A stretch of DNA of 64,000 nucleotides from Pseudomonas phage PhiPA3: the sequence record HQ630627.1, one strand, 5' to 3'. Positions 7,337 to 54,757 of this stretch are shown here, piece after piece. Position numbers and translations under genes: made by a program. Below the pieces are notes generated by a model. That model was given only the letters and a program-made list of their open reading frames with translations. It did no database searches and had not been told where the DNA came from. How positions within the stretch are numbered: the first letter of the stretch is position 1; every line of letters starts with the position of its first letter.

Positions 7337-7768
7337 ATGACAAACATTTATATAGCAATCGACCCGGCGTGGTCCTATGGGTTCCTAAGCGCGATATCTA
7401 ATCACATTACGTTAGATTTTAGCACGCAGAGCCGTCTCTACGAGCACGCGATGGATTTCATTCGTCTACGCCATAACTTCAACTGGAATCATGACGCTAT
7501 TGCTTTTAATACTGGTTATAACAGTATCATGATGGCGTTGCAAGAATATCCAATTGCTACGTCGTTCTTTGAGGGCATGTATCGGCAACTCTTCAATAAT
7601 TACCATCTTGCATTAAATAGCTTGGGTGGAGAGATTGCAAAGATAACAACCATTACCGATAGTGAAGGGCTGATTACCGGCATCGTCTGTCAGGTAGTGG
7701 AAACAATTCCACATATTCAAAGTGTTTTTAACCCTATATCACAGATGGGAATTAACTCCACCTGTTGA
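7337..7768 (+). CDS. hypothetical protein (143 aa)
   Basis: I chose ATG 7337 (AGGTGA 8 nt upstream). The GTG at 7313 reported in the ORF track lies inside the terminator stem. Confidence 0.45.
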   Translation: MTNIYIAIDPAWSYGFLSAISNHITLDFSTQSRLYEHAMDFIRLRHNFNWNHDAIAFNTGYNSIMMALQEYPIATSFFEGMYRQLFNNYHLALNSLGGEIAKITTITDSEGLITGIVCQVVETIPHIQSVFNPISQMGINSTC

Positions 7769-8681: not shown

Positions 8682-8732
8682 ATTATGCCGCTATTGGCTG
8701 AGCAGATTCGTATATTCAAAACATTTTAAACA

Positions 8733-8754
8733 CTATATTACAAATGTGATATTA
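8733..8754 (+). promoter_or_regulatory. early-promoter-like dyad motif CTATATTACAAATGTGATATTA
   Basis: One of four near-identical motifs. Each sits about 40 nt downstream of a terminator and 26-33 nt upstream of an ATG. It resembles the AT-rich TATATTAC-type early promoters of phiKZ-like phages, as I recall them. Confidence 0.45.
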
Positions 8755-8781
8755 GCCTAGTTAATCAACGGAGTAATCCCC

Positions 8782-9866: not shown

Positions 9867-9892
9867 CCTTTGTAATGTATCTTTTCTGAAGG

Positions 9893-9914
9893 CTATATTA
9901 CAAAAGTGATATTA
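9893..9914 (+). promoter_or_regulatory. early-promoter-like dyad motif CTATATTACAAAAGTGATATTA
   Basis: Second copy of the motif, about 30 nt after terminator 9846 and 25 nt before ATG 9939. Confidence 0.45.
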
Positions 9915-9938
9915 CCCAATTCAATCGAGGATTTAATC

Positions 9939-10091
9939 ATGAAAGCAATTGCCCTGGTATTCGTAGGTATGGTTCTTGGCGGCCTGTTCGTTAACGCTAA
10001 GTACGATACCCCCAAAGCATCTGAAGAGCAAGTTGTACTCGGTACCCGGATCGGTTCTCTGGGTCAAGAGATCTTGGTTGTTAAGAACTAA
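9939..10091 (+). CDS. 50-aa TM microprotein
   Basis: I preferred ATG 9939 over 9906, because the 9906 start overlaps the promoter motif. It has a GAGG ribosome-binding site and the hydrophobic segment IALVFVGMVLGGLFV. Confidence 0.35.
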   Translation: MKAIALVFVGMVLGGLFVNAKYDTPKASEEQVVLGTRIGSLGQEILVVKN

Positions 10092-10130
10092 GTAATACCC
10101 CCTTCAAATAAACAATAGGAAAATACAATC

Positions 10131-10487
10131 ATGGCTCGCTCCCTCTCTGACTACGTCGTAGAAGAAATCGTTTATCCGACCGTCATCGGTCTGTCTATCG
10201 CCGGCGTTCTGATCGGCATCAATGAGGCTGTCAAATGGTGGAACCGTCCCACCGATAAGGACATCGTCGAAGAATACTGTATCAAGATCGATGAGATCGT
10301 TCAGCGCCACAAGAACCGTGTCGTCGCTCGCGAGGGGGATCGCATCATCGCCGTCAACACCGCTTACCGTGCCCTGATGCTTCGCCTCGCCGTGGAATAC
10401 CAGGGTAACGAACTGGAAGAAGTTCGTAAGACCATCCGTGCACATTACGAAATGCGTGCGAAAGAAAACGGTTGGGAAATCAACTAA
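10131..10487 (+). CDS. hypothetical early protein (118 aa)
   Basis: ORF preceded by the AATAGGAAAA translation-initiation motif. Confidence 0.5.
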   Translation: MARSLSDYVVEEIVYPTVIGLSIAGVLIGINEAVKWWNRPTDKDIVEEYCIKIDEIVQRHKNRVVAREGDRIIAVNTAYRALMLRLAVEYQGNELEEVRKTIRAHYEMRAKENGWEIN

Positions 10488-10552
10488 GCGCGATGGGGTA
10501 GGCGAAAGCTTACCCCCTGTTATACCTTCAATTTTTAATAGGAATCTTCAAA

Positions 10553-10933
10553 ATGAAAACAGTCTCGATCGTGGCCATCACTATTTCAGCTGTAGTCGCT
10601 GTTGGTTTCACCGCAGCGGCTATCTATACCCACAACCGTAACGAAGCTCGCATCGAAAAACGCGATGCATTCATCGACAGCATTTGCGGCGATCTCGCCG
10701 AAGCAGTTGCTAAGTACAAGCGTACCGCTGACTACGACAAACTCGTGGACAGTCTGCGTGAAGACGGTCTCTCTCCGGAAGACCTCGTCAATCGCGTGCG
10801 CTTTGCTGTAGCCGCCAAACTGCTTCCGCGGTTCGAGAAGCGTTTGGAAAAGAACAAGGATGAATACTCCGAAGAAGACTTCGGTATCATCCTGTCCCGT
10901 CTCCACACCTTCACCAAGCGAGTTATCTACTAA
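10553..10933 (+). CDS. hypothetical early protein (126 aa), N-terminal TM
   Basis: ORF preceded by AATAGGAATC. Confidence 0.5.
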   Translation: MKTVSIVAITISAVVAVGFTAAAIYTHNRNEARIEKRDAFIDSICGDLAEAVAKYKRTADYDKLVDSLREDGLSPEDLVNRVRFAVAAKLLPRFEKRLEKNKDEYSEEDFGIILSRLHTFTKRVIY

Positions 10934-11115
10934 TGAAATACCTCACTCAAGCCCTCGTTGTAATCTTCCTCGGTGCCAGCGTTGCTGTGGGTAACGCTTA
11001 CGTCGATCTGACCAAGCCGGAAGGCAAAGTCAGTAAAGAAACCCAAGCACTCTGCGACAAGCGTGACCAGAAGTGTCAGCAGTTTGTGATCGTCTTCCAG
11101 GAGAAGTTCAAGTGA
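10933..11115 (+). CDS. hypothetical protein (60 aa), signal/TM N-terminus
   Basis: ORF with a TAATG overlap with the upstream gene. Confidence 0.4.
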   Translation: MKYLTQALVVIFLGASVAVGNAYVDLTKPEGKVSKETQALCDKRDQKCQQFVIVFQEKFK

Positions 11116-11531
11116 TCCAACAACCTTACCGTCGCACAGCGGCCGAGTTCTCCATCAATCAAGGAACTGAACAGAAACAAGCTGCCGGTTTCACCAGCGC
11201 CTATTATGTCTTCGCTGACATTAAAGGCGACACCATGCTGGACTGGATCGAATACCAGATGAACCGTCTGATGCCTCTGGAGGTCCGTAACCATAACCAC
11301 AGCTACAAGGACATGTTCTGGATGTTCCATGACCAGGGCTTGTTCAAAGAGCCGGTAAACGCTGAGTTCTTCTATCGGATCATCCCGATCCACAAGCGCC
11401 GTTTCCGCAAGCTGCTGCGCCGCGTAGCCGGCGCCTGTCGTATCAAGGGTGGCGGTTACAAGGGCGTGGATTGCATGGTGGTTCCTGATGCAGTGGTCGA
11501 CACCATGAACGCCTGGGTCAATGAAGGCTAA
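11112..11531 (+). CDS. hypothetical protein (139 aa)
   Basis: I preferred the GTG start at 11112, which has an AGGAG ribosome-binding site, over ATG 11073. Confidence 0.4.
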   Translation: MIQQPYRRTAAEFSINQGTEQKQAAGFTSAYYVFADIKGDTMLDWIEYQMNRLMPLEVRNHNHSYKDMFWMFHDQGLFKEPVNAEFFYRIIPIHKRRFRKLLRRVAGACRIKGGGYKGVDCMVVPDAVVDTMNAWVNEG

Positions 11532-11565
11532 ACGTCCGCAGATCTACCGAAGGAAATCCGTAACA

Positions 11566-11859
11566 ATGACCGATAAATACGAATCTCCGGTTAGCACACC
11601 GGATAAGCTTTACATCAACGGCTACAACGTCACCGCCCTGACGGACCTGATCGAACAAATACGCGATCACTTCGGGGATGAAACGTTCCTGGAACAGATC
11701 TCCATCGATACCGAGCAGGTTCAAGTCGCCGGTTGCAGCTGTTGCCCTGGTGGTGCTGTCTACAACACCTACTACGTTATCACCCGTGAGCCTGTGGGGG
11801 ATAACGTACGTAACTCGGCTACCATGCTGGGTGGTATCCTTCAGGAAACTGACGGATGA
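11566..11859 (+). CDS. hypothetical protein (97 aa)
   Basis: ATG 11566 with an AAGGAAAT ribosome-binding site, in frame with track ORF 11521. Confidence 0.4.
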   Translation: MTDKYESPVSTPDKLYINGYNVTALTDLIEQIRDHFGDETFLEQISIDTEQVQVAGCSCCPGGAVYNTYYVITREPVGDNVRNSATMLGGILQETDG

Positions 11860-12083
11860 GTTACCGTTTCCGTCAGATAACCTCGACAGAGGCACGTGAG
11901 CTCCCTAACGGTGAGTATGACACGTGCCCACTACATGGCCCTCAGGTGTACATGCCTGAGCGTCGTGTACGGGTGAAGAATGGTTCTGTGCGGTTACTGG
12001 CGTACATCGATGATGACATGCTGGCATTCAGTGCACCGTTCTTCTTTGAAGTCAACGTTTTAGTGGAGAAGCAAGATGGGTAA
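11856..12083 (+). CDS. hypothetical protein (75 aa)
   Basis: ORF with an ATGA overlap. Confidence 0.4.
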   Translation: MSYRFRQITSTEARELPNGEYDTCPLHGPQVYMPERRVRVKNGSVRLLAYIDDDMLAFSAPFFFEVNVLVEKQDG

Positions 12084-12243
12084 GAAATTATTCGACCATG
12101 TCCGCAGTCAATGGTTAATGGCCACCTGCTTCGCTGTAGCTGATTCGGTTCTGTATGGTGATGCTTTCGCACGGAATAGCATCAAAGAAGCAGAAGACAA
12201 CCTTCGGGAAACGGCGGCTAAGATCATTGCAGGTGACTACTGA
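12076..12243 (+). CDS. hypothetical protein (55 aa)
   Basis: Small ORF that fills a gap, with a TGATG overlap to the next gene. Confidence 0.3.
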   Translation: MGKKLFDHVRSQWLMATCFAVADSVLYGDAFARNSIKEAEDNLRETAAKIIAGDY

Positions 12244-12428
12244 TGGCTTCGCGTATTTCCAAAGGTAAACGTCGGTACCTGATGCAGTTGGTTAAGTCGG
12301 GTGCTATGCGTTATAAAAGTATCTGGCAGGCTGCTTGCGGTATGTACGGCCTCAATATGCATCTCGAAGGCACGTCAGAATCGCGTGAAGCCATCTACCG
12401 TCGATTCCTGGAAGAGGAAGAGCAATGA
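12243..12428 (+). CDS. hypothetical basic protein (61 aa)
   Basis: ORF. Confidence 0.4.
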   Translation: MASRISKGKRRYLMQLVKSGAMRYKSIWQAACGMYGLNMHLEGTSESREAIYRRFLEEEEQ

Positions 12429-12658
12429 GCCTCAACTACAGCGGCTACAGCGTTACCTTTAACGTTACGCACAACGGTGTCCAAAAAGCGTTCACTGGGT
12501 TCACTGAACCGACTGGTGATGCTGAGGAGGACAAGAAGATCGCTACTCGTAAAGCCATGGAGCAATTCATGGCCTCCGAGCAGTTCGGTCAGATGACCTA
12601 TGGCTTGATGGACGAGTTCAACATCAAGGTCACCACGCTGGTACACACCAGCATGTAA
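12425..12658 (+). CDS. hypothetical protein (77 aa)
   Basis: ORF with an ATGA overlap, followed by hairpin actcgtatc-N8-gatacgagt. Confidence 0.45.
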   Translation: MSLNYSGYSVTFNVTHNGVQKAFTGFTEPTGDAEEDKKIATRKAMEQFMASEQFGQMTYGLMDEFNIKVTTLVHTSM

Positions 12659-12725
12659 AGAGTAATATACGTGTACTCGTATCCTAAACAGATACGAGTG
12701 CATTATTTTATTCCGTGAGGTAGGT

Positions 12726-12962
12726 ATGTTTATTAATGTGATCGCTCAAATCCAGGGTCAGAGTAGAACGGTGGATGTAATCGTCAGTGAGCCTAATAGC
12801 CTCGTTGAACTATTGACGATTTATCAGAAGTCGGATAAGGTTAAAGCTTATCGGGTTATTCCACAAGACTGCCCACCAGTAAAGAACTTCTATACCGATT
12901 TCGGTTGGGGTAACGCGTATTTTGATAAGAACCAACCTGATAAATTTGATTGGACCGATTAA
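12726..12962 (+). CDS. hypothetical protein (78 aa)
   Basis: ORF with a GAGG ribosome-binding site. Confidence 0.4.
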   Translation: MFINVIAQIQGQSRTVDVIVSEPNSLVELLTIYQKSDKVKAYRVIPQDCPPVKNFYTDFGWGNAYFDKNQPDKFDWTD

Positions 12963-13006
12963 CATGTCTAAAGAGGAAGGGCTGACCTACGTCGTCCCGC
13001 CGTACG

Positions 13007-13240
13007 ATGAACTCTGACAAGCTACGGGGAATACTGGCTAACCACGGTATACTCCCTACACTGTTCGTTGAGAGTTCAGATATACGTATTGCCAACTTCC
13101 GGTTCCAACGGCATAAAACTCAGGTTCTCAAACCTGGTGGACCTGGTTATCGGAAATGGATTGACGTGGATTCACTGGACTGGGTAGAAGTCGAGTTCCA
13201 CCTCAACAAATTCCTCAAGGAGAATGGTCTCGATGGATGA
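13007..13240 (+). CDS. hypothetical protein (77 aa)
   Basis: ORF. Confidence 0.4.
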   Translation: MNSDKLRGILANHGILPTLFVESSDIRIANFRFQRHKTQVLKPGGPGYRKWIDVDSLDWVEVEFHLNKFLKENGLDG

Positions 13241-13688
13241 CCTCATGATCAACCACAACTACGGAAAACCCATGAACGAAACGCCAGCTATACGGATCTC
13301 GGATCTGCCAGTACTGGACGATCGCCAGATCAATCAGGCGATTGCCAATCTGGATACATTGGCCATTCCGTCTGCTGAACAGGTCATTAAAACGATCGAT
13401 GAGCAGGAGCGTATCCGTCAGACACCGCTGTTTGACACCTTCGTCAAGGACATGGTAGCCAAGCTCAATGATCCGGTGTTTCTACATCGTGAGAAACACC
13501 ATTTCTCCTCGGGTAAGGGCTACGTCTTCGAGTACAAGGATAACATGCCCGCCCCGTTGTTCGAATACCTTTGCAGTCAGTTTGGCAAAGCCGGCTGGGC
13601 GGCGGTTACCAGGACCAATGGTAACGAGCGCGCGGCAACTGGCCGAACGACTTCCATCTACGTCATCTACGATGATTGCGACGAGTAA
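13224..13688 (+). CDS. hypothetical protein (154 aa)
   Basis: ORF. Confidence 0.5.
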   Translation: MVSMDDLMINHNYGKPMNETPAIRISDLPVLDDRQINQAIANLDTLAIPSAEQVIKTIDEQERIRQTPLFDTFVKDMVAKLNDPVFLHREKHHFSSGKGYVFEYKDNMPAPLFEYLCSQFGKAGWAAVTRTNGNERAATGRTTSIYVIYDDCDE

Positions 13689-13696
13689 GTGCAACC

Positions 13697-13909
13697 ATGA
13701 TTGATAAAGAAGCGGTTTTCAAGACCGAGGAAGAAATCCTCATGAAAGGCGATCTCGTGATGTGCCGCGAGTATGGCCTGTCACCCAACGGCAATCCCCT
13801 CAATGGGGTCTGGGTGATCCGCAACCGCAAGACTGGTCAGTACATCGACCATGACCGCTACAGCAATGACCTCAAAGAGCGTCACGACTTCCACCCCAAC
13901 GTGAGTTAA
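13697..13909 (+). CDS. hypothetical protein (70 aa)
   Basis: ATG 13697, in frame with track ORF 13676. Confidence 0.4.
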   Translation: MIDKEAVFKTEEEILMKGDLVMCREYGLSPNGNPLNGVWVIRNRKTGQYIDHDRYSNDLKERHDFHPNVS

Positions 13910-13920
13910 AGGAGTAATAC

Positions 13921-14181
13921 ATGGGTACTCATATTTCCGGTGACTACACCGAAATCAATTTCCTGGAGTTCCACAACCGTAAAAAGCAACTCCCCAGTGG
14001 CATCTACCTCGTGGTTGAACACGATGGTAGTCACAACGTCGCTCGTGTTACCAGCAACGGTCTCTGGAATGAGATCGACTGGTTCTCGGTACAAGAGTGG
14101 GAAGATCTGCAACAACGTGAGCATCAAGCACGTATGGATGATGCTGCGCTCGACGCCATCATGCGTTTCGATCCCCTTTAA
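13921..14181 (+). CDS. hypothetical protein (86 aa)
   Basis: ORF with an AAGGAG ribosome-binding site. Confidence 0.45.
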   Translation: MGTHISGDYTEINFLEFHNRKKQLPSGIYLVVEHDGSHNVARVTSNGLWNEIDWFSVQEWEDLQQREHQARMDDAALDAIMRFDPL

Positions 14182-14217
14182 CAACCGTCATTCAATTAGT
14201 AATAGGAAAATTTAATC

Positions 14218-15033
14218 ATGACTCATCGTCCGACTCAAGAACAACTGCAACATTTTCGTAGCATGCGTGAAGCTCGTCGTGTTCGCTTCAATCCGGCTCA
14301 CCTCCCCCAGGGCACCGTAGTCGAAGCTGAGCTCCCCACCCTGAAGAACTACGACAACCCGGAACAAATGGTGATCCTGCCGGGTGACGTATACCCACGC
14401 GGTCAGTTCACCGTGGATTACTGCGGTCGTAACGGCGCTGACAGCTGGTACGTCGTGTGCTTCGAAGAAGATGAAGGCCTGGGCATCAAGCGTGGGTTCA
14501 ACATCTCCTGGGTGCGCAAGATCATCTCCCGTGGTACTGGTCCGGTTCTGACCGATGACCCGAACCGCGATACCACTTACCGACCCAACATGCACCCGCC
14601 GCGTTACCGCAGCTTCCCCAAGCCCAAGAACGCGTACTACATGGAAAGCCTGCGCATGGGTGTACATGGTATCCTGCAAAGCCATCCAGCGTTCAAAGAT
14701 CGTTGCCGCGATCACCTCTACGATCTGGAGAAGATCACCGCATGGCTCGAAAATCACCCGACCATTCAGGCCGGTGCTCATAAGACCACCTACATTCACT
14801 TCTACGTCATCAATAAGCGTAAGTTCCTCAAGCTACTGGAGCAAGCCATGACTTACGCCAAGACCAGCCGCCGCAAGGAACAAGAACGCAACAACCGTCT
14901 GGACTACGAGGCCAGCATGCGTGACCTCGATTCGTGCTTCGACGATGATGACGACATCCCGGTAGTTACCGATGAGGATACCACCTGGGAAACCCACTAT
15001 GATCCATCCGCTGAGGATTGGGTTGGTAATTAA
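14218..15033 (+). CDS. hypothetical protein (271 aa) with acidic C-terminal tail
   Basis: ORF preceded by AATAGGAAAA and followed by a strong terminator. Confidence 0.55.
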   Translation: MTHRPTQEQLQHFRSMREARRVRFNPAHLPQGTVVEAELPTLKNYDNPEQMVILPGDVYPRGQFTVDYCGRNGADSWYVVCFEEDEGLGIKRGFNISWVRKIISRGTGPVLTDDPNRDTTYRPNMHPPRYRSFPKPKNAYYMESLRMGVHGILQSHPAFKDRCRDHLYDLEKITAWLENHPTIQAGAHKTTYIHFYVINKRKFLKLLEQAMTYAKTSRRKEQERNNRLDYEASMRDLDSCFDDDDDIPVVTDEDTTWETHYDPSAEDWVGN

Positions 15034-15059
15034 TTCGTTGGTAACAACGCTTATACCCA

Positions 15060-15090
15060 GGGGCTCTTTGGAGCCCCATCTTTTTTTATT
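15060..15090 (+). terminator. intrinsic terminator ggggctc-tttg-gagcccc + T7
   Basis: GC stem followed by a run of seven or more T. Confidence 0.75.
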
Positions 15091-15150
15091 TCCACAAACG
15101 GCAGTACTTTTTATAACTAGACTTGCGTGTCGTTTTAGAGGGACTGAGAA

Positions 15151-15495
15151 ATGCCTGTACATCAACTCAATAGCCAATTGCTGATTAAGCACTCCCCTCA
15201 GTTCACCTATGACGATTCTGGTGTCCTGTTCAGTGCACGTAGCTACAAAGACCAGAATGACCAACCGAAGATCCATTGGGACGTATACAAGGGTAATGAT
15301 TACCACGGAGCTTTCGTACGCGTGGGTCATCCGAGTCTTCCGAACAAACTCCACTTCATCCAGTTGGAAATCTTCAAACGGTATTCACAATACACTAATC
15401 TGTGCAATCTGTACCAACTCGAACCAGTGATCAAGGAAGAGTACGATCTCCTGATCGCTAAACTCAACAAGCTGTATCACCTCAACATCGTCTAA
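15151..15495 (+). CDS. hypothetical protein (114 aa)
   Basis: ORF with a GAGGGA ribosome-binding site. Confidence 0.5.
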   Translation: MPVHQLNSQLLIKHSPQFTYDDSGVLFSARSYKDQNDQPKIHWDVYKGNDYHGAFVRVGHPSLPNKLHFIQLEIFKRYSQYTNLCNLYQLEPVIKEEYDLLIAKLNKLYHLNIV

Positions 15496-15509
15496 AAGGA
15501 AACTACAAG

Positions 15510-16580
15510 ATGATTCGTCTCCCTTCCACCGTTACCAACGTGTTCAGCCGTTCCGTCAACAACATCAACCAGTGGATGGACAAGAATGTAGGTTCAGTTT
15601 ACGCTGGTTTCCCCACGGCTGTCCTGGAATCCCCGGAAGCTGGTCACTGGCGTGAACTCGAAGCCGCTCCCCAGAACCATGTCTACATGGACATGCTCTG
15701 GGCTGAGGTAGCTCGTATCGGTCTGCGCATCTGCAACACCATTGATCGGGTCGACGTACGTCTGTACGTTGGTCTGTGTCGTCGGGATTGGTTCGACAAC
15801 GGTAACAGCGAACTGATCGAGATCTTTACCGAGCTCTATGACGGCGATCAGTGGTTCCGTACCGGTGAGCAGTACCTGCCGGTTGAGAAAGCCAATCAGA
15901 TCCCGGTGGTGCTGAACGCGCGGATCGCCTGTGGTTACTGGGACACCATCTGTCAACATGAAGTATACCTCGGGGGGTTGTATGATCCCAGTCGTATCGA
16001 CTGGCATTGGGACAATCCCTTCGTTACCCTGGCTAATCTCGAAATCCGCAGTACCTTCGTAGTACCCACCCTACTGCGTATGGTGAAACGCCTCGGCGTT
16101 ACTTCGCAGTTCCGTGGTATTGCTGACGACGCAAGTGTTGTGTTGGCGATCGACGGTATCGACGAAGCCGCCGCAATGCATGCCTCTGAACGCACCCGTG
16201 AGCACGAGGACATGGTAGTCCTCAAGCTGCGTGATGCGATCATGCGTTACATTCTCACCAGTGGCGGCTTCCAGGTACACTACCCGAACGGTAATCGCCT
16301 GCACTGCGGGCTGACCACTGGTAAATACTGGATCGATAATGACGAACGGAAATTGACTCACGTTACCATGACTCTCTACACGCCGGAACATGTTCACGGT
16401 ATCAATGGCGACCAACTGGAAGAGGTCTACTACTCCAACATGTCGGAAAACTTCGCTCCCGAAGACTACGACACCATCCTGAAAGCCCTCGATAAACGAC
16501 TGCGGGAACAGAACGATGTATCTGGTCTGGGTAGCCGTGTGGTCGACCTGTGGCGTGCAACTCAGATGTTCCCGGTATGA
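15510..16580 (+). CDS. hypothetical protein (356 aa)
   Basis: ORF with an AAGGAAAC ribosome-binding site. Confidence 0.55.
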   Translation: MIRLPSTVTNVFSRSVNNINQWMDKNVGSVYAGFPTAVLESPEAGHWRELEAAPQNHVYMDMLWAEVARIGLRICNTIDRVDVRLYVGLCRRDWFDNGNSELIEIFTELYDGDQWFRTGEQYLPVEKANQIPVVLNARIACGYWDTICQHEVYLGGLYDPSRIDWHWDNPFVTLANLEIRSTFVVPTLLRMVKRLGVTSQFRGIADDASVVLAIDGIDEAAAMHASERTREHEDMVVLKLRDAIMRYILTSGGFQVHYPNGNRLHCGLTTGKYWIDNDERKLTHVTMTLYTPEHVHGINGDQLEEVYYSNMSENFAPEDYDTILKALDKRLREQNDVSGLGSRVVDLWRATQMFPV

Positions 16581-16810
16581 ATTGCGGTGTAACGGATTTC
16601 GATGTCTACTTGACCATCGTGTTCTTTTTCATTGCAGGTGCGATGTGGCTCTGGTATATTCTTGGAATGTACCTACCTACTGAGGTCTACAAGAACGAAC
16701 CCGACCACAAGAAGGATGAGTACTTCCAGAAAATGCTGTACGTAGCCTTGGGTGCCTCAGGCCTGGCTGTCGCTCAATACCTCTTCCTAAAAGGACTTTC
16801 CAATGTCTAA
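16550..16810 (+). CDS. hypothetical 2-TM membrane protein (77-86 aa; start 16550 or ATG 16577)
   Basis: ORF with two hydrophobic segments. Confidence 0.4.
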   Translation: MACNSDVPGMNCGVTDFDVYLTIVFFFIAGAMWLWYILGMYLPTEVYKNEPDHKKDEYFQKMLYVALGASGLAVAQYLFLKGLSNV

Positions 16811-17072
16811 CAAGCTTGGTAAGAAACACCCGAACTACAGCAATCAAAGTGAAGCCATGGCTAAGCTGATCGCCCGTAAGGATAAATTCGGGCGCCCCAT
16901 GGTTCGTCGTTATACCCCACACATCCTGGATGCGTGGTCGAAACTGCGTGACAAGCTCATGCATCCCTTCCAGGACCAGTACGAGGAGTCCCGCATCTCT
17001 CCGGCGAAACGGGCATACTACCTCAAGCTGGACAAGTACTACAACCGCTCCATTAACGGTAAGGACATCTGA
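16803..17072 (+). CDS. hypothetical basic protein (89 aa)
   Basis: ORF. Confidence 0.45.
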   Translation: MSNKLGKKHPNYSNQSEAMAKLIARKDKFGRPMVRRYTPHILDAWSKLRDKLMHPFQDQYEESRISPAKRAYYLKLDKYYNRSINGKDI

Positions 17073-17209
17073 TGGACGAGCGCTACCAGGAATACCGCAC
17101 CATGTTCACCGACCCGTTCGCGGGTCAAACTCGTAACCAACGGAGGGTTGCCAAGAAGCTTGCCGAGAAGGAAACGCGCAAGCTCCTCCAGCGCACCCGC
17201 CAGAAGTAA
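17072..17209 (+). CDS. hypothetical basic protein (45 aa)
   Basis: Small ORF between track ORFs, with a TGATG overlap, ending at a terminator. Confidence 0.3.
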   Translation: MDERYQEYRTMFTDPFAGQTRNQRRVAKKLAEKETRKLLQRTRQK

Positions 17210-17218
17210 TGACATAAA

Positions 17219-17240
17219 GCCCCTCCCTTCGGGGAGGGGT
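17219..17240 (+). terminator. hairpin gcccctccc-ttcg-gggaggggt
   Basis: GC stem with a UUCG loop. Confidence 0.6.
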
Positions 17241-17270
17241 GTTCTATTTAATTTTTAACAGGGAAATCCA

Positions 17271-17600
17271 ATGGAAGACTTCTACGAAATCAATCTGTTC
17301 CAGGTCGAACGTGTAAAGACCACTATCGGTGACGAGATGGTTGTCGTCGTTCAGGTTGTTACCATGGACAAACGCAAAGCATATGGCGTGCTGGCCGTTG
17401 AAGGTGCTCTGTCCGCTAATGGGGTGATCAAGTTCACTGAGGACCGCCAGTATGCGCGTTACTTCTTCACCGGGTCAGTGGCTAAGGTTTACGCTGAAGC
17501 CTATGCCAATTACCTGCGCTACAACATGGACGAACAAGATTACCTCGACATGAACAGCGGTTACAACTATTCCGAATTCATGAATCTGGTAACCCGCTGA
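17271..17600 (+). CDS. hypothetical protein (109 aa)
   Basis: ORF with a GGGAAAT ribosome-binding site. Confidence 0.5.
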   Translation: MEDFYEINLFQVERVKTTIGDEMVVVVQVVTMDKRKAYGVLAVEGALSANGVIKFTEDRQYARYFFTGSVAKVYAEAYANYLRYNMDEQDYLDMNSGYNYSEFMNLVTR

Positions 17601-17607
17601 GGTAGCT

Positions 17608-18027
17608 ATGGAAAAGATGTTAGAATCGTTCAAGTTCCACAACAAGCATGTTGTGGTGAACTTCGAATATGATGTAAAGAACGACATCTGGCGCCGTGTT
17701 AAGCCCATCGTTCCTATTGGCACTGGTACCGGTAGCATTCCCATTGAAGATCCTGTCGGTGAGCTACTGAACATTCGCTGGGTAGACTGGCAGAAAGCGT
17801 GGCGCGGTGGCGAACAAAAACAATTGTTGGAAGATCGGGTTATCGAACTGAATCCCGAACTAGTCGAAGCTATCCTCGACACTGAATATCTCCAGGAGGA
17901 CTACAATCGCGATGAAGGTCTGGTACAAGTTCGTTACCAGATCTCGAACGATTATCATAATCGTGAGTTCGCTCGCGATTCCGTTAAACGTATCATCGAA
18001 GCCTACAACAAACTCAAGGTGTACTAA
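17608..18027 (+). CDS. hypothetical protein (139 aa)
   Basis: ORF with a GAGG ribosome-binding site. Confidence 0.5.
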   Translation: MEKMLESFKFHNKHVVVNFEYDVKNDIWRRVKPIVPIGTGTGSIPIEDPVGELLNIRWVDWQKAWRGGEQKQLLEDRVIELNPELVEAILDTEYLQEDYNRDEGLVQVRYQISNDYHNREFARDSVKRIIEAYNKLKVY

Positions 18028-18452
18028 TGAGTCTGGAAAAAAGAGATGAAGCGGTAATTTACACCCATGTTGAAACCGGTGGATTGTACTACCGTAACGG
18101 TATTGCCGAAGGTGGTCATGGAAGACAAGTGGTGTTCACCAGCTACTTCGGCGGTAATGTGATGTACATGAGCGAGGCTGATTTCCAAACGGTAATGAAA
18201 CCAGCTAAAACATACGGCTTACGATTCGCTCGGACCTGGGCACCAGCCAAGTGGATAATGGTTATGTTCGCTGGTCTCATCGTTAGTCTTACCTACTATT
18301 CGATTTCTGGTAAGGTGGTCAGTGTCAATAAGTACGCAGAAGCGCTGACACTCATCATCGTAATTTCCAGTATCATGCGTTATCCGATCACATGGCTGTA
18401 TTTCTGGAAATACAATGGGCGTGAGAAAGGTATCGCTTTCTTCAAAGACTAG
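18027..18452 (+). CDS. hypothetical membrane protein (141 aa)
   Basis: ORF with a TAATG overlap and multiple hydrophobic segments. It is the last gene of the + strand early island. Confidence 0.5.
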   Translation: MSLEKRDEAVIYTHVETGGLYYRNGIAEGGHGRQVVFTSYFGGNVMYMSEADFQTVMKPAKTYGLRFARTWAPAKWIMVMFAGLIVSLTYYSISGKVVSVNKYAEALTLIIVISSIMRYPITWLYFWKYNGREKGIAFFKD

Positions 18453-18539
18453 GGGAATTCGACGCTGATGGTTCTCGCGTTATTCATGGACGTCCTGCGT
18501 TAATTCGGTCCGGTTTCACCGGGTCTGTAACCTCCAACT

Positions 18540-18592
18540 GGGAGCCCTTCGGGGCTCCCTTTTATTTCCTTCTTTTTTTTTTGTTTTAGGCT
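18540..18592 (+). terminator. intrinsic terminator gggagccc-ttcg-gggctccc + long T tract
   Basis: An 8-bp GC stem followed by TTTTATTTCCTTCTTTTTTTTTTTG. Confidence 0.75.
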
Positions 18593-18607
18593 AAGACGAC
18601 ATAAAGG

Positions 18608-18645
18608 ATAGGGAGAAGCGGTACGTCATGTCCGCTTCTCCCTAT
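18608..18645. other. perfect 14-bp-stem hairpin atagggagaagcgg-N10-ccgcttctccctat
   Basis: Perfect inverted repeat inside the ORF-free region, with no adjacent U-run. Confidence 0.5.
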
Positions 18646-19238
18646 TGCAGCTCCCACGGCCTGATAGGAACCACATAATAACCGGCATCAGATATCTTGA
18701 GCTTCATTTGTGGATGCTCCTCTTGAGCTTAGCATTTTTCACTTCCAGATCTCCAATAACCACAATTGTTCGGCTTACAGGTTTCCAGTCAGGTAGATTA
18801 CCAGCAGTAGGGTATCTAACTTAAAGGAAATCGCAGCTTTGTCTTCACGTAGTATTACTACAGCTGAGTATATTTTTTAATCAATGTCTATTGAGTATTG
18901 TTTTAATAGAGGTTTTTGAAGATTATACTGGGGTTAGTTATGATTCTGTAGACGAAGGAAAAGGATCCTCCGGAGGAGGGGGGTTTTATTTAATAATAAA
19001 CAGAGTTACGTTAGTAACTCATTCCTTATTCTTCTCTTATAAAGTCCTTAGTCTGTTAAACTAAAATCCTTATTCCTAAGCGTAAGCTAAATATACTACA
19101 AGCCTCCCCTCAAAGGGAGGCGTTTATGTTGTATTATATTTTTGTTTAAGTTATTATAAATGTCGACGCTAAGGCCTCTATTTTGCGTTTCTATGCATTA
19201 TCTCCATTAAAGGGTACCGATGGCCATTACGGCATAAA

Positions 19239-19254
19239 GCTCCCCGTAGGGAGC
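19239..19254 (-). terminator. hairpin (minus strand gggagc...gctccc read as ggctccc-tacg-gggagc + TTTATGCCG)
   Basis: GC stem just downstream of the stop of minus-strand gene 19261..19671. Confidence 0.5.
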
Positions 19255-19260
19255 CGTATG

Positions 19261-19671
19261 TTAAACTACACCAAATACTAGGTCGTAACCACGTTTAGCA
19301 CCATTGCTGGTAATAGCACGGGCATCACTGAGGGTGTAGGACTGTGGAGTGGTAGCGTCTTCGTTAGTAGCGAAGTCGATAATGTAGCCAGCTTGGAACG
19401 CATGTCCCCAACCACTACGAACTTCACCGTTTATTGCAGTACCGAAAACTTTCTGCCATTCTTCACTGGTAACGCGCATGACGTCCAGTAGAACCCATTG
19501 ACGAGCTACTACGAGAATATTGATCGGCTCAGCCTTAATGAACGCTTTGGCAATAACGGTACGCAGTTCTTCCAGCATCGCTTTAACACGATCACGGTAT
19601 TGTTGACGTTCTTTATCTACTTTAGCCATCTGGTCCAGTTCATCAACACTGGGGTATACGTCACAGAGCAT
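19261..19671 (-). CDS. hypothetical protein (136 aa)
   Basis: ORF, the last gene of the minus-strand cassette. Confidence 0.5.
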   Translation of the reverse strand: MLCDVYPSVDELDQMAKVDKERQQYRDRVKAMLEELRTVIAKAFIKAEPINILVVARQWVLLDVMRVTSEEWQKVFGTAINGEVRSGWGHAFQAGYIIDFATNEDATTPQSYTLSDARAITSNGAKRGYDLVFGVV

Positions 19672-19746
19672 CTTGAGACCTCCTTTTCTCTTGTTCTACC
19701 ATGACCATTACAGCACGACATAGCGCCTGCATGTCTCTTACTTGAC

Positions 19747-20130
19747 TCATACATCCCCCAACGCTAAACGAACTAGGTCGTCGACGTCTAAATCCCAAAA
19801 GATACGGTTAAACCCAACACAGTCACACCACGCATAATCTCCATCGGGCATTGGCCAAGGTTTCTGGAAGACTTCAACCAGTACATTGTAACGCAGGTAC
19901 AGTTCATGAATCAGACCTTCACGACGCTCATTAACTTCAGCTTCAGAGATCTGATCGATTGGCCACGGGAATCCATTAGAGAGTTCAAACGAAACACTAG
20001 CAATCAGATTACGGATTGCAATAAGGTTCTGACTCGTTGAGTAAATCCGGATGGCCGTAGGACGCCTTTCCCTGGCGTTAAAAAGAATGTAGTTCTTGAT
20101 GCCTGACATCAAGCTGTCGATTGCCGCCAT
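19747..20130 (-). CDS. hypothetical protein (127 aa)
   Basis: ORF. Confidence 0.5.
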   Translation of the reverse strand: MAAIDSLMSGIKNYILFNARERRPTAIRIYSTSQNLIAIRNLIASVSFELSNGFPWPIDQISEAEVNERREGLIHELYLRYNVLVEVFQKPWPMPDGDYAWCDCVGFNRIFWDLDVDDLVRLALGDV

Positions 20131-20160
20131 TTATTCTTACCTTGTAAGGGATTGAATAAA

Positions 20161-20185: not shown

Positions 20186-20563
20186 TTAATTAGACCAAGC
20201 GTCATCGTCCATACCACCGATAATGCTACCCGGAACAATTTTGAGCGAGTAGTCTTCTTCTTTATCGATGTCCCATGGGATAATGCCACACGAACTGAAC
20301 GGCAGAAGAACATATTGGTCTTCTTCAGACGTCACAGTGTTCCGGTGCTTACCCCGTTGGATGGCGAGATACGATTTGCCTTTCACTTTGATGATGTGGT
20401 GGAACAGTTCTAGGTCAGGTTCCTGACCCAGTCGACGGCAACCGTCATAATAGCCTTTGTTGGCTACAACCTTCACGAAGTCTTCGGTGTTCTCCCGCAT
20501 GAGCTGGAGGGCATCAGAGCCGAGCTGGTGAGGACTGATAAACGTGATACCTCTCGATGTGTT
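20186..20563 (-). CDS. DnaB-family helicase, exon 2 (C-terminal 125 aa: H3 and H4 motifs)
   Basis: The reading frame is open without a start codon from about 20575. The motifs ITFISPHQL (compare SQLNR) and LAIQRGKHRNTV (compare KQRNGptGtV) occur with DnaB-like spacing. The stop is at 20186-20188. Confidence 0.6.
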   Translation of the reverse strand, partial: NTSRGITFISPHQLGSDALQLMRENTEDFVKVVANKGYYDGCRRLGQEPDLELFHHIIKVKGKSYLAIQRGKHRNTVTSEEDQYVLLPFSSCGIIPWDIDKEEDYSLKIVPGSIIGGMDDDAWSN

Positions 20564-22353
20564 CAGTAAGGTTCGTTACACCTTACCCGCGCCATTATGC
20601 GCAGCTCCAGGCTTTCCCTGGATGTCCAGACTATATCTTCACCCTCGGTTTCCCGATAGGGTGCTTCCCACTTCGAGTTCACTTGAACTCTACTCCCCAC
20701 TACGGGATAGTCGTTGAACCTTCTCCGTGCCTTTCGGTTTAGGAGCTTGGCTGCTGATTGTCCAATTTCTACACTTGTTAAACCTTCATAGACTCCTTTC
20801 GGGTCTATTGTGGTAGTAGAACTCTGAAGGAGTTTCCAGCAATTCAGGAAGTACTCGTAAAGCATTACGGCTTTACGGCCCTAAATAAGTAACCCTTAGT
20901 TTCCTTATTAGTGCTCAGATTTAATCGAATTGTTTTCTCGTTTAGACCGGTTAGACGAGCTGCTTCTTTAATAGAAGCAACCTCAGTTATAACACCGGTA
21001 TTCACGCAGGTAACCAGAATGGCTTTAGCTTGTATTGGCTTGTCGATATACGCCGAATTATCGTACTTATTCGAATCCGTGCGGATTATCCAACGCTTAG
21101 CGTAGATGTATTTCAATCCACGACTTAGGTCGACTTGCAACTCCGCTTTAGATCTCCCACAGTGATTCGCTATCTCCTGTAAAGTAGCGAAGACATGGAG
21201 AGTATTCGTTTCTAGATCACTTACGTAGTAAGGTCCAGACAGATTATTCCTACTGTAATGAATTTCACAGTGCGGAACATGCTCTTTAAAACGAATGACG
21301 AAGTTGTCGATGGTTTCGAACCGATATGGTATTCCATACGCTGTCGCAATCTGTTTTACACGATTGAACTTCCGGCTCTGTCCAGTCCGCGTATCGAAAA
21401 CCGTTATGGTGAATATCGATTTACCAACTTTAAAATCGTTTATATCAACTGTTTCGTAATGCCATGGTGTTAAGTCATCCATGGTTTTTATTTCATACCG
21501 CTTGCCCCAAAGATAACCAGGCAGTTTAGTTTGAAAACTTACAGTTGAGTTACCTACACCAATACCGAGACTTCTGTTCATCTCGCTAATGGACCTGTAC
21601 GCAGTAACTTCTCCAGTTAGGACATCCCTAACCTTCGTACCAATAGGTGTTCCATTAAGACCGACTTCCAATGCATGCTGTGCATTTTCCGAAGCATCAC
21701 ACCATTCTAGGTTAGATACGTCGTTATTGGTCTTAACTCCATCAATATGGTTAACGAGCGGTCTTTTTACGAAACATTCGTTTGGAACCCATGCCAAAGC
21801 TACTAACCGATGAAATTTTACGGTACGATTGCAATTTCGATCGGGTACTCTGATATAACACGTGTAGTAACCTTTATCATCGAGTTTCACATCCGTGATA
21901 ATCGAATTCGTTTTGGTATCTAGCACATGCCCATTGGTATCAATAGCGTATCTTGGGTAGTTTGGTATATGCCTGAACCCATCGCAGTAGTAAATCGGTT
22001 CTGCGAATGTCATTATCTTTCCGCACCTTATTCTCAAAAGCGTGTTGTCCACGTCTTTGAAAATTATTTTGTCAAGGTGTTGGGATAGATTGGGAATGTC
22101 TTCACATTCGTACCAAGCAAGTAGACTGAGCCACTCGACTGTGACTGTATACTTTTTACCAAATAGAACGATATTAACTAATCCATTCTCTTCCGGTAGG
22201 GAAACATGTTTCCCCAATCGGTCAAATATTTGACCGTTTAAATCAATTCGGTATTCTGAACTACCAGGAATCTTTTTAATCACAGCCACACCCCAAGTTA
22301 AAAAATCAACTATAGGATATCTGTAATTAAAGGTAGGTAATTTAAGGAGTGGT
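20564..22353 (-). mobile_element. group I intron (~1.79 kb) with embedded HNH homing endonuclease ORF
   Basis: The minus-strand core elements are P AATTGCTGGAAAC (~20848-20836), Q AATCAGCAGCC (~20759-20749), R GTTCAACGACTATC (20719-20706) and S GAAGATATAGTC (20640-20629). A candidate internal guide sequence ATAGTT pairs with the exon sequence AACTAT. A gtaagg-N9-ccttac hairpin sits just before the 3' splice site, which follows a G. Confidence 0.65.
20865..22289 (-). CDS. HNH homing endonuclease (474 aa) with C-terminal NUMOD/IENR-type DNA-binding helix-turn-helix
   Basis: NUMOD4-like N-terminus IKKIPGSSEYRIDLNGQIF. The HNH core is HRLVALAWVPN...VNHIDGVKTNNDVSNLEWCDASEN. The C-terminus reads IKEAARLTGLNEKTIRLNL. 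It starts with GTG 50 nt after the exon-1 stop. Confidence 0.85.
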   Translation of the reverse strand: MAVIKKIPGSSEYRIDLNGQIFDRLGKHVSLPEENGLVNIVLFGKKYTVTVEWLSLLAWYECEDIPNLSQHLDKIIFKDVDNTLLRIRCGKIMTFAEPIYYCDGFRHIPNYPRYAIDTNGHVLDTKTNSIITDVKLDDKGYYTCYIRVPDRNCNRTVKFHRLVALAWVPNECFVKRPLVNHIDGVKTNNDVSNLEWCDASENAQHALEVGLNGTPIGTKVRDVLTGEVTAYRSISEMNRSLGIGVGNSTVSFQTKLPGYLWGKRYEIKTMDDLTPWHYETVDINDFKVGKSIFTITVFDTRTGQSRKFNRVKQIATAYGIPYRFETIDNFVIRFKEHVPHCEIHYSRNNLSGPYYVSDLETNTLHVFATLQEIANHCGRSKAELQVDLSRGLKYIYAKRWIIRTDSNKYDNSAYIDKPIQAKAILVTCVNTGVITEVASIKEAARLTGLNEKTIRLNLSTNKETKGYLFRAVKP

Positions 22354-23511
22354 ATAGTTCCTCATGCGACGGAACAGCAGACGAATATCATCACCTGCTA
22401 CTTTCGCATCCAGACCAGTCTTTGGTAGCATGTTCAGGTAGTCAACCATCAGCATCTGGATTTCGTAACCCTGGGACTGGAGACCATCAAGGTAGTTGGT
22501 GAAACCACCAATGGTAAATTCAGTCGGGTCAAAACGGATCATCTTAACGTTGAAACCGTTCTCTTGCAGACGTGCACAGACATAAGCCGCAGCTTCTCGT
22601 TTGTCGATGTCAGCAACAATGATCTCTTCACCCGTTTCATTCTCACGGATATACTTGTAAATAGTTAGCAAGTTATCAGAGATTTCGTTTTCCAACGTAA
22701 CAAACAGCAACAGAGGCTTCTTCGTCTTGTCACGCATGAACGGACGGTTAAACAGAGCGATGTGCGAGAACAGCAACATTAGCATGTATGACTTGAAGTT
22801 GTGTTGCAGAGCCGCAGTGGTGATAAACTCGCCTCGACGAAATGCCCCCAAGCTACCCAGGATACGGTTAAATCCTTTCCAACCTGTTTTGAATGCACCG
22901 TCAGCAGACAGAGTAGTCTGTACCTGCTCAAAGAAATCTTCTACTGCTTCAGGCTCACTGAAGTCCAAGCAACCCATTTCAGCTGGGTGTCTACTTTCAG
23001 CACGCGCTTTGACATACGGATCGAGCTTAGCGCCCATCTCGTTAATAGCACCAGCGATATCGCCACTACCGCCACGGTTGAAAAGAAGCTTCTGCGAATA
23101 CTCTCGAACGATCTGCTTGATCTTTTCATCATTGAGGTGTGCGTTCAGCGCACTGCGACGAGAGTTGATAGCCCGCATAATGGACATCCCGTCAGGGAAA
23201 TCCTCTTTTACGCCATTGACTACCGCTTCGTACAGATAGTTTTCTTCCCGGCAACTCACTTGTACGGCTTGTAGAACTTCCGCCAAACTCGGGAAATCGT
23301 GCTTTGCTTTACTGTTCAGATCACCGACGAGCTTACGTAGTTCTAAGAACGTTTGCCGACCATGGTCGTGGTCAACAGTGGTATCACGGACTTCCAGTGT
23401 ATTGATGATTTCCGATATCAGTTCAGTTGATGGTGCAGCAGGAGAATCTTCACGGTGTTCCAAGCACAGCAGGGTAACACACTGTACGAGCAGTTGTTTC
23501 GGGGAGGACAT
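22354..23511 (-). CDS. DnaB-family helicase, exon 1 (N-terminal domain plus RecA-like core through Walker B)
   Basis: The ORF carries LLLFVTLENE (H1a-like) and IQMLMVDYLNML (Walker B). It terminates 30 aa after Walker B, which is where the intron begins. The Walker A region is degenerate (TAALQHNFKS). Confidence 0.65.
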
Positions 23512-26680: not shown

Positions 26681-26700
26681 CTATATTACGTTGGTGATAA
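26681..26700 (+). promoter_or_regulatory. early-promoter-like motif CTATATTACGTTGGTGATAA
   Basis: Third copy of the motif, 37 nt after the terminator and 33 nt before ATG 26733. Confidence 0.4.
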
Positions 26701-33025: not shown

Positions 33026-33038
33026 ACCGGTTTAAAGC

Positions 33039-33060
33039 CTACATTACAAATGAGATGTAG
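33039..33060 (+). promoter_or_regulatory. early-promoter-like motif CTACATTACAAATGAGATGTAG embedded in inverted repeat gcctacat...atgtaggc
   Basis: Fourth copy of the motif, 26 nt before ATG 33086. Confidence 0.4.
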
Positions 33061-33085
33061 GCTAACCCAATCTAATGATCAAAAG

Positions 33086-54630: not shown

Positions 54631-54639
54631 AAATATACT

Positions 54640-54659
54640 GGAGTCCCTTAGGGGACTCC
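54640..54659 (+). terminator. hairpin ggagtccc-ttag-gggactcc + TTTATG
   Basis: GC stem. Confidence 0.55.
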
Positions 54660-54757
54660 TTTATGTCGACTTTAAAATGCCTTACTGTATGAGTCTTATT
54701 TCTCTTAAGACGTGTAAGAAGTAGTTGAAAGACTCTCTTCACCCAAAGGAAGACACA

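Follow-up and report, generated by a model that had tools for sequence, protein, structure and literature searches.

What is the role of an interval without genes in a phage genome that is otherwise densely packed with them? The DNA that raised this question is a stretch of 64,000 nucleotides of Pseudomonas phage PhiPA3 (sequence record HQ630627.1; hereafter the window), and the interval, at positions 18453-19260, is the 808-nt gap where a + strand early operon and the − strand helicase operon of the phage converge. Phage loci for non-coding RNA (ncRNA) and for termination are of a kind that is known already. In the reading that we favor, and to which we give about even confidence, the gap combines a zone of terminators that would insulate the two operons from each other, a conserved non-coding module, and the positional counterpart of an ncRNA unit that has been validated in phage phiKZ.

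A preliminary description, made from the letters of this DNA, had stated that the gap contains no open reading frame (ORF) of 60 aa or more on either strand, and this was confirmed. It is the longest such gap in the 64 kb, the runners-up measuring 341 and 223 nt, whereas in random sequence of the same composition the longest ORF-free gap has a mean length of 1923 nt. Since shuffled sequence has longer ORF-free gaps, the signal lies in the contrast with the gene-dense genome and not in the absence of ORFs as such. The AT-rich stretches mentioned in the same description proved to be extreme, as the gap holds the most AT-rich 40-, 60-, 100-, 200- and 400-nt stretches of the window, with the two lowest values in the 64 kb at 19122-19161 (12% GC) and 18869-18908 (15% GC). 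Also recovered were the GC hairpins at 19102-19121 and 19239-19254, the palindrome CCTCCGGAGG (18967-18976, followed by A, G6 and T4) and the direct repeat TCTTGAGCTT, whose copies lie at exactly 18695-18704 and 18721-18730 and are the only two in the window (0.18 expected). No tRNA had been recognized by eye in the gap, and ARAGORN likewise predicted 0 tRNA or tmRNA genes across the whole window. Searches of Rfam gave no match in the gap at the gathering threshold and nothing credible at E ≤ 10, the best match within 18400-19320 reaching 26 bits against a threshold of 50. By contrast, short motifs were clearly enriched: TTTATKYYGT was found three times in the gap versus 0.04 expected, a number reached by 0 of 500 local dinucleotide shuffles; TCCTTATTCT occurred three times versus 0.16 expected (0 of 500 shuffles), and AAWATATACT three times versus 0.29 expected (2 of 500).

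Most of the hairpin richness of the gap appears to be termination. Previous work has described the consensus of phiKZ terminators as BCCYCCCCHWWDGGGRRGGBYTTATKYYGT, that is, a hairpin followed by YTTATKYYGT (Putzeys et al., 2024, PMC10914365). Judged by hairpins and tails, the gap would contain five intrinsic terminators of this type within 720 nt, three on the + strand (T1, H1/T2, H3/T3) and two on the − strand (T4, T5), whose coordinates are collected in Table 1. T3, T4 and T5 consist of a G+C-rich hairpin directly followed by TTTATKYYGT, T1 and H1 carry the variant TTTTATTT, and, as in phiKZ, such elements are sited at operon ends. The three TTTATKYYGT tails (18605-18596 on the − strand, 19123-19132 on the + strand and 19238-19229 on the − strand) each stand behind a hairpin of −17 to −27 kcal/mol. 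In the window as a whole this motif occurs 10 times versus 1.48 expected, a number that 0 of 100 shuffles reached; 8-9 of the 10 copies lie directly 3′ of a strong hairpin, and 3 of the 10 are those in the gap. T1, the strong terminator of the preliminary description, was located by a terminator scan and lies 88 nt past the stop codon of the PHIKZ023 homologue, T4 starts 7 nt past the stop of the 136-aa ORF 19261-19671, and T3 and T5 follow no annotated gene. As for the perfect 14-bp inverted repeat (18608-18621 / 18632-18645, with a 10-nt loop), its existence was borne out, but the statement that it lacks a U-run was wrong, a termination tail being present on the − strand (T5). What distinguishes PhiPA3 from the phiKZ-type arrangement is that it packs five such terminators so closely, that H1 and H2 face each other over a conserved 18-nt tail, and that the strand of the H3 tail differs between PhiPA3 and phage HPP-Temi, where by its tail the hairpin acts as a − strand terminator. 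Outside the gap, hairpins followed by TTTATKYYGT were also found with tails starting at 12707, 13108, 26645, 40059, 60806 and 63655, so that the combination is usable as a rule for annotating PhiPA3 terminators.

Table 1. Coordinates of the features found or predicted in the PhiPA3 gap, in window positions
Feature	Position	Strand	Description
T1	18540..18590	+	Early-gene operon terminator (terminator scan); hairpin 18540-18559, GGGAGCCC-TTCG-GGGCTCCC, tail TTTTATTTCC plus long T-run
T5	18596..18645	−	Putative terminator; perfect 14-bp hairpin (18645-18608, −26.9 kcal/mol), then TTTATGTCGT (18605-18596)
Predicted lineage-specific RNA	18598..18847	−	About 250 nt, P2 to T5; fold z = −3.6; both ends predicted
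Candidate 21-aa ORF	18642..18707	−	MKLKISDAGYYVVPIRPWELQ; Shine-Dalgarno (SD) sequence AGAGGAG at 18723-18717; stop abuts T5
P2	18867..18876	−	AAAATATACT box, A-rich run plus TACT; candidate middle-type promoter; predicted transcription start site (TSS) about 18847 (−22 rule)
Block A, conserved island	18914..19002		TACT 18926-18929, purine tract AGACGAAGGAAAAGGA 18950-18965, H1 and 18-mer; 83% identity to PA1C
H1/T2	18966..18991	+	Putative terminator (terminator scan); CCTCC-GGA-GGAGG within TCCTCCGGAGGAGGGGGG (hairpin 18966-18983), then TTTTATTT
18-mer	18984..19001		TTTTATTTAATAATAAAC; unique in the window
H2	19003..19020	−	GAGTTAC-GTTA-GTAACTC, then TGTTTATTA on the − strand
TCCTTATTCT-like repeats	19023..19076		Three copies (19023, 19045, 19067), exact 22-nt spacing; − strand reading AGAATAAGGA
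H3/T3	19102..19132	+	7-bp stem and 6-nt loop, GCCTCCC-CTCAAA-GGGAGGC, then TTTATGTTGT; canonical + terminator in PhiPA3
P1	19122..19161	−	Most AT-rich 40-mer (12% GC); AAAATATAAT at 19142-19133 and TTAAAC...TATAATACAA, resembling PhiPA3 early promoter
T4 (block B)	19229..19254	−	Helicase-operon terminator (hairpin plus tail motif); GCTCCC-TACG-GGGAGC, then TTTATGCCGT

Comparisons with other genera of phiKZ-like (Chimalliviridae) phages revealed that the right half of the gap (about 18865-19260, some 350-400 nt) is a non-coding module common to PhiPA3, Pawinskivirus and Phikzvirus, always placed at the 3′ end of the helicase operon. Conservation without coding constraint, which the preliminary description had proposed as a check, is therefore present in two other genera. 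In a sensitive blastn comparison of the whole window with 49 kb of syntenic sequence from Pawinskivirus PA1C, only 18914-19002 (83%) and 19227-19263 (94.6%) aligned within 10000-20150, and the core genes (capsid, helicase, virion) have 64-79% identity to PA1C, below the 83-95% of the module. By these alignments the module appears to be the strongest non-coding conservation signal in the 64 kb, above the capsid and helicase genes. phiKZ and Pawinskivirus have in common a 58-nt core of about 90% identity, and an nhmmer profile of the core matched every Phikzvirus and Pawinskivirus locus and the PhiPA3 window with E values of 1e-19 to 1e-27. For Phabio, Psa21, Noxifer, Viktualia and a relative from IMG/VR, the profile had no match up to 5-6 kb from the helicase, and the convergent junctions of these phages are tight. 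The module is thus missing from P. fluorescens and P. syringae phages whose helicases are closer; the helicase of Phabio has 75% protein identity to that of PhiPA3, versus 62.5% for phiKZ. Since Phabio is closer by helicase and yet does not carry the element, the element follows the host P. aeruginosa and not the phylogeny of the helicase. A pattern scan of IMG/VR for the core returned phage PA7 only, the core pattern had no match in metagenome contigs or GTDB genomes, and the block A hairpin pattern had none in IMG/VR. Likewise, the core was not found in helicase-anchored loci from metagenomes and IMG/VR, some of which were too short for judging, and our literature search found no description of it.

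From left to right, the module consists of P2, a + strand TACT, a purine tract, H1, the 18-mer, H2, the TCCTTATTCT repeats, an ATACT box, H3, the AT-rich patch of P1, and T4. The TACT precedes H1 by 41, 41 and 42 nt in PhiPA3, PA1C and phiKZ, respectively, and the purine tract keeps the pattern GA.GGAA..GGATC. The 18-mer is invariant across the three lineages save for 2 positions in its central 4 nt, and can be read as a pair of opposed tails, one (TTTTATTT) belonging to H1 on the + strand and the other (GTTTATTA) to H2 on the − strand, which makes H1 and H2 a face-to-face terminator pair; it can also form the 6-bp A-U palindrome TTTATT-N4-AATAAA, in which both variable positions fall within the 4-nt loop. 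H1 is potentially bidirectional, given the A-rich run upstream of it. At the place of H2 the relatives have ATACC-GAA-GGTAT. They carry two copies of the repeat at conserved offsets from the 18-mer (+33 and +61/+63), so that the arrangement is three copies spaced by 22 nt in PhiPA3, two by 28 nt in Pawinskivirus, and about two by 27-30 nt in phiKZ.

The stems of the module are paired in all lineages but change in sequence. Covariation was counted on positional alignments, as MAFFT had misaligned the H3 hairpins. H3 has a 7-bp stem and a 6-nt loop in four lineages (PhiPA3, phiKZ, PA1C and HPP-Temi). All 28 cells of this comparison are paired, and each of the 7 positions differs on both sides; the changes include a compensatory one within Pawinskivirus (T-A to G-C, PA1C versus HPP-Temi). 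In H1, 15 of 15 cells are paired and two of the five pairs are changed on both sides, the phiKZ version being GCCCC-GTA-GGGGC followed by TTTTATTT, and the stem of T4 (H4) covaries with phiKZ by two double changes. Sequence conservation peaks in the unpaired linkers and not in the stems. This combination of conserved linkers with paired but changing stems is typical of structured RNA and would also be compatible with an element acting as single-stranded DNA (ssDNA) or as a cruciform. Single-sequence folds beat shuffles on both strands, with z values of −2.5 to −3.8. Just left of the conserved core, phiKZ-like loci bear a further hairpin, ACCAGTAT-[CATTGAGTA]-ATACTGGT (positions 3452-3476 of locus L008 in phiKZ; also in L010, L011 and L012), whose loop appears in FBPa36 and PA7 as the reverse complement (TACTCAATG) of that in phiKZ and ANB1; this is a flip-flop inversion, bounded by inverted repeats of 8 bp.

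In phiKZ, northern blotting has revealed two transcripts, one of about 880 nt and an ncRNA of about 180 nt that was reported as the "first 180 nt of the 5′ UTR of p40" (Gerovac et al., 2021, PMC8545117), and ONT-cappable-seq recovered the 5′UTR_p40 RNA as a species of 196 nt (Putzeys et al., 2024, PMC10914365). We found that at the syntenic place, between gp117.3 and gp117.2, phiKZ likewise leaves about 685 nt without genes, and that the gene bordering this gap on the left, gp117.2 on the − strand, is PHIKZ_p40. The Grad-seq northern probe JVO-18831 was located at L008 3357-3385 and has the + strand sequence. The RNAs that it detects, of about 180 and 880 nt, therefore belong to the − strand, i.e. 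the helicase strand, and the ncRNA lies inside the gap, to the left of the conserved core. The phiKZ box AATAATATACT (L008 3446-3434) fits the published description of phage middle promoters, in which TACT is centered at −22 behind an A-rich run (PMC8244752), with a predicted TSS at about 3417; a stretch of 196 nt from there ends exactly after a strong hairpin, and this segment folds with a z of −5.7. If transcription began just downstream of the P1-like box of phiKZ (about L008 3655), it would reach the terminator after gp117.1 in about 880 nt. PhiPA3 has a gap in the same slot, downstream of the helicase/117.4 operon, and on the helicase strand a terminator, T5, is present. In this slot the RNA predicted between P2 and T5 would be the positional counterpart of the phiKZ operon-50 leader, i.e. 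of the 5′UTR_p40 ncRNA. The two units are alike in slot and strand, in an A-rich TACT box at the matching position, in the H1/H2/repeat/H3 core immediately upstream, and in strong structure (z of −5.7 in phiKZ versus −3.6 for the PhiPA3 RNA, which is predicted from sequence). They differ in that the phiKZ RNA runs on into the tiny ORFs p40 and p39, whereas that of PhiPA3 would stop at T5 after about 250 nt, its sole ORF being the candidate of 21 aa, which is not conserved.

The boxes from which such RNAs would start have counterparts in the relatives and elsewhere in the window. P2 corresponds, at the same relative place, to the phiKZ box mentioned above and to AAAAATAAACT in PA1C. An additional copy of AAWATATACT is found in the 94-nt gap upstream of gene 54725, which supports the reading of this motif as a promoter box. 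For P1, a − strand promoter is the candidate role, with DNA unwinding as the alternative; its pattern ATTATATTTTT..TTAA is conserved with phiKZ. A sigma-70 scan gave one good − strand match, at 19160-19133; since infection by phiKZ-type phages is independent of host RNA polymerase (PMC7598289), we treated it as an AT-rich box only. The early-promoter motif TATATTAC was tried as a discriminator and rejected, as at ≤1 mismatch it gave 41 matches versus 44 expected. Elsewhere in the window, the early promoter of phiKZ, which is that of the virion RNA polymerase, has its PhiPA3 equivalent in repeats of about 40-55 nt containing CTATATTACAAATGnGAT; they lie at 8724-8778, 9884-9938 and 33030-33084, and also at 26682 (+) and 12662 (−). 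Two short islands, 7715-7756 and 8710-8757, align to several places in PA1C.

Taken together, we propose that the gap would work in two layers. In one of them, the five terminators, each a G+C-rich hairpin with a TTTAT-type tail, would stop read-through between the two operons. In the other, phage RNA polymerases would start at AT-rich boxes of the phage's own type (P2 leftward, TACT rightward and P1 leftward), and the short RNAs produced would end at internal terminators. On the − strand this would yield the RNA of about 250 nt from P2 to T5, as the counterpart of the phiKZ leader of which the first 180-196 nt accumulate. The core might give one or two small RNAs, namely a + strand species that starts at the TACT box and ends at H1 (about 43 nt) or at H3 (about 185 nt), and/or a − strand species of about 130 nt (P1 to H2).

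The strand from which the core is transcribed is a point on which the evidence goes both ways. In favor of the + strand are the fixed distance from TACT to H1, the + strand tails of canonical form that H1 has in every lineage and H3 has in PhiPA3, and a consensus folding energy of −15.3 versus −7.0 kcal/mol. The purine tract and the first repeat are also predicted to form a helix, which keeps its pairs through G.U on the + strand, where the − strand would have C.A; this long-range helix was not established, both its arms being conserved in sequence and two of its pairs breaking in phiKZ, and it gives a weak hint of strand. In favor of the − strand are the phiKZ transcripts, the boxes P1 and P2, T5, the tail after H2, and H3 as the − strand terminator of a gene inserted in HPP-Temi. 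Convergent transcription of both strands of the core is possible. This two-sidedness weighs against the reading that we favor, as do several other points. The left halves of the PhiPA3 and phiKZ gaps have no significant local alignment (score of 25 against a shuffle mean of 19.2, reached by 15 of 300 shuffles), only the neighborhood of the promoter box being alignable, so that the correspondence of the two units would be one of position and architecture, sequence similarity not being demonstrable. The published phiKZ ncRNA has its body to the left of the conserved core, and all start sites and RNA lengths given for PhiPA3 are predictions from a loosely defined promoter rule (TACT at −22). The lineages compared are only three independent ones, and the covariation comes from few events; a similar picture could arise if terminators were replaced independently at one fixed place. 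Furthermore, stacked terminators alone could explain part of the conservation, their tails being constrained by the polymerase.

The last point leads to an alternative, namely that the gap does nothing but terminate: a fail-safe stack of terminators for convergent operons plus spacer left by gene loss or rearrangement, conserved through the requirements of the polymerase for its tails, and through slow decay or recent recombination among phages of the same host. In its favor, the five hairpins are canonical terminators, the 18-mer can be explained by two opposed tails and block B by a terminator with its tail, the locus is a hotspot of gene gain and loss, and restriction to P. aeruginosa phages fits exchange during co-infection. 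It leaves unexplained, however, several conserved sequences that are not terminators, i.e. the offsets of TCCTTATTCT, the GA.GGAA..GGATC pattern, the TACT at 41-42 nt from H1, AGCGTWAGCTAA before H3, the H3 loop and the AT-rich boxes; a terminator placed, like T5, 630 nt past T4 is hard to justify unless transcription starts in between, and the phiKZ gap yields discrete RNAs. We consider termination as the whole explanation to be rather unlikely. A hidden gene or genes for small proteins, such as the − strand 21-aa ORF or a frame in block A annotated as a coding sequence (CDS) in HPP-Temi, is an alternative that we regard as very improbable. The 21-aa ORF does have an ATG start and a good SD sequence at 9-nt spacing, with the TCTTGAGCTT direct repeat flanking its ribosome-binding site and start codon, and HPP-Temi and HHBS36_1 annotate CDSs of 29-50 aa over block A, where the frame keeps an ungapped match of about 40 aa with 52% identity. 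Nevertheless, 0 of 7 small ORFs had a PHROG match, the region of the 21-aa ORF is not conserved in any relative, and the frame in block A begins with TTG, has no ribosome-binding site, passes through a terminator hairpin and is without a matching frame in phiKZ; conservation is at the nucleotide level, with covarying stems. When the 21-aa ORF was tried as a homologue of phiKZ p40, the score was below the shuffle mean. The gap was also found to hold no remnants of an ORF024-like gene of Pawinskivirus, of the extra genes of HPP-Temi, or of phiKZ 024.1, 024.2, p39, p40 and p41.

Among the roles suggested in the preliminary description, a small RNA (sRNA) or other ncRNA is the best supported, by conservation without coding constraint, covarying hairpins and the northern-validated ncRNA of phiKZ, and no evidence for a packaging site was found. 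The third role, a replication origin, would make the conserved core a DNA element, either of the iteron type, as in lambda ori, or of the type of T4 oriF/oriG, where a promoter and an AT-rich unwinding element give an R-loop primer; the hairpins would then be ssDNA or cruciform signals. The core resembles these origins in its AT-rich stretches beside phage promoters (promoter-like boxes flank the AT-rich patches), in direct repeats separated by about two helical turns, and in the nearness of replication genes. The extreme 40-400-nt AT-rich stretches, with the 12% GC of P1, provide an adjacent candidate for unwinding; the three repeats have an exact 22-nt spacing; palindromes are present, among them TTTATT-N4-AATAAA; and the element stays linked to the 3′ end of the replicative-helicase operon in three genera although its left neighbor differs. 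A literature search turned up no origin for a phiKZ-like phage. The differences are that the PhiPA3 locus has no known initiator, that the number and spacing of the repeats vary by lineage, which breaks the helical phasing expected of iterons, and that the element is missing near the helicase of Phabio, Psa21, Viktualia, Noxifer and the IMG/VR relative despite the same replication proteins. In addition, the stems covary in strict Watson-Crick fashion, which suits an RNA no less than a DNA element, and HPP-Temi, a viable phage, lost the AT-rich patch of P1 to a gene insertion. The GC skew, whose sign changes at about 19 kb, does so exactly at the switch of coding strand and is thus uninformative about an origin either way. 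On balance we hold an origin to be quite improbable.

A more specific function of the core, which we put forward as unlikely but worth stating, would be peculiar to nucleus-forming jumbo phages of P. aeruginosa. In this case the core would be an R-loop-type origin, or its RNA would act in trans as a structured decoy in which UCCUUA (+) or UAAGGA (−) engages SD/anti-SD pairing or RNA-binding proteins of the host (e.g. Hfq, RsmA); alternatively, the core would encode a convergent sense/antisense pair of sRNAs ending face to face. Sponge or decoy RNAs such as RsmY, RsmZ, CsrB and CrcZ carry repeated short single-stranded motifs. PhiPA3 is similar in having a short motif repeated in the linkers between hairpins and a distribution restricted by host, and this motif reads on the − strand as AGAAUAAGGA, GGA- and A-rich, and on the + strand as UCCUUA, identical to the 3′ end of 16S rRNA. 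It differs from such RNAs in that there are only 2-3 copies, relatives included, that no Rfam family matches even at E ≤ 10, and that GGA is not located in hairpin loops.

To the left of the gap lies the PHIKZ023 homologue (18027-18452, + strand; 25-32% identity to relatives), which used as a query gave no exact-match contig. The + strand block bears the PhiPA3 early-promoter repeats (CTATATTACAAATG) and the − strand block contains the helicase, and therefore the description of the gap as a border between early (+) and replication (−) cassettes is reasonable. To the right, the first gene is the 136-aa ORF on the − strand, found in PhiPA3 only (AVT69_gp128 / protein 129), followed by a PHIKZ117.4-like gene (19747-20130) and then by the DnaB-like helicase. 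Among 5.8 billion proteins the sole match of the 136-aa ORF was itself, no Pfam or PHROG family was assigned to it, and as a query in IMG/VR it gave no loci; this ORFan sits between the 117.4-like gene and the conserved T4, in a slot that is empty in Pawinskivirus and phiKZ. The locus is indeed a hotspot of gene gain and loss, with the ORFan in PhiPA3, an ORF024-like gene in Pawinskivirus, p39/p40 in phiKZ, and a virion gene in HPP-Temi. The latter (L004 2698-3714) is an extra − strand gene annotated as "virion structural protein", placed between the helicase operon and H3 instead of the AT-rich patch and T4, so that H3 is the terminator of the inserted gene.

Two further features of the window were recorded. 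A group I intron, about 1.8 kb long, separates exon 1 (22342-23511) from exon 2 (20186-20500) of the helicase gene (20186-23511, − strand), and its junction was placed at 20551|22345 by comparison with the uninterrupted helicase of PA1C. The Rfam family RF00028 (group I intron) matched 20607-20900 with 83 bits, as the sole Rfam match in the window at the gathering threshold, and the intron ORF (20865-22289) has HNH_3, NUMOD1 and I-HmuI-like NUMOD domains, indicating a homing endonuclease. In-frame repeats were also found at 54072-59665, in the + strand ORFs 53932-54630, 54725-57493 and 57493-60774. They comprise 75/84-nt repeats at 54072-57749, mostly inside two very large adjacent ORFs and with the first copies (54072-54198) in ORF 53932-54630, and arrays with a 9-nt period (GGN-NNN-NNN, coding for collagen-like Gly-X-Y), mainly at 58168-59665.

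PhiPA3 and phiKZ are the main models of the phage nucleus and candidates for therapy, and the non-coding functions of these phages are almost unexplored, with few ncRNA candidates and no mapped origin. In this context, the locus offers a set of experimental targets within about 350 nt, i.e. promoter boxes, face-to-face terminators and a repeated 10-mer, and the orphan ncRNA of phiKZ is now tied to a module common to three genera. Even if the gap were an insulator only, it would still document how early and replication transcription are kept apart, and would supply the signature of a hairpin followed by TTTATKYYGT for the annotation of terminators in PhiPA3.

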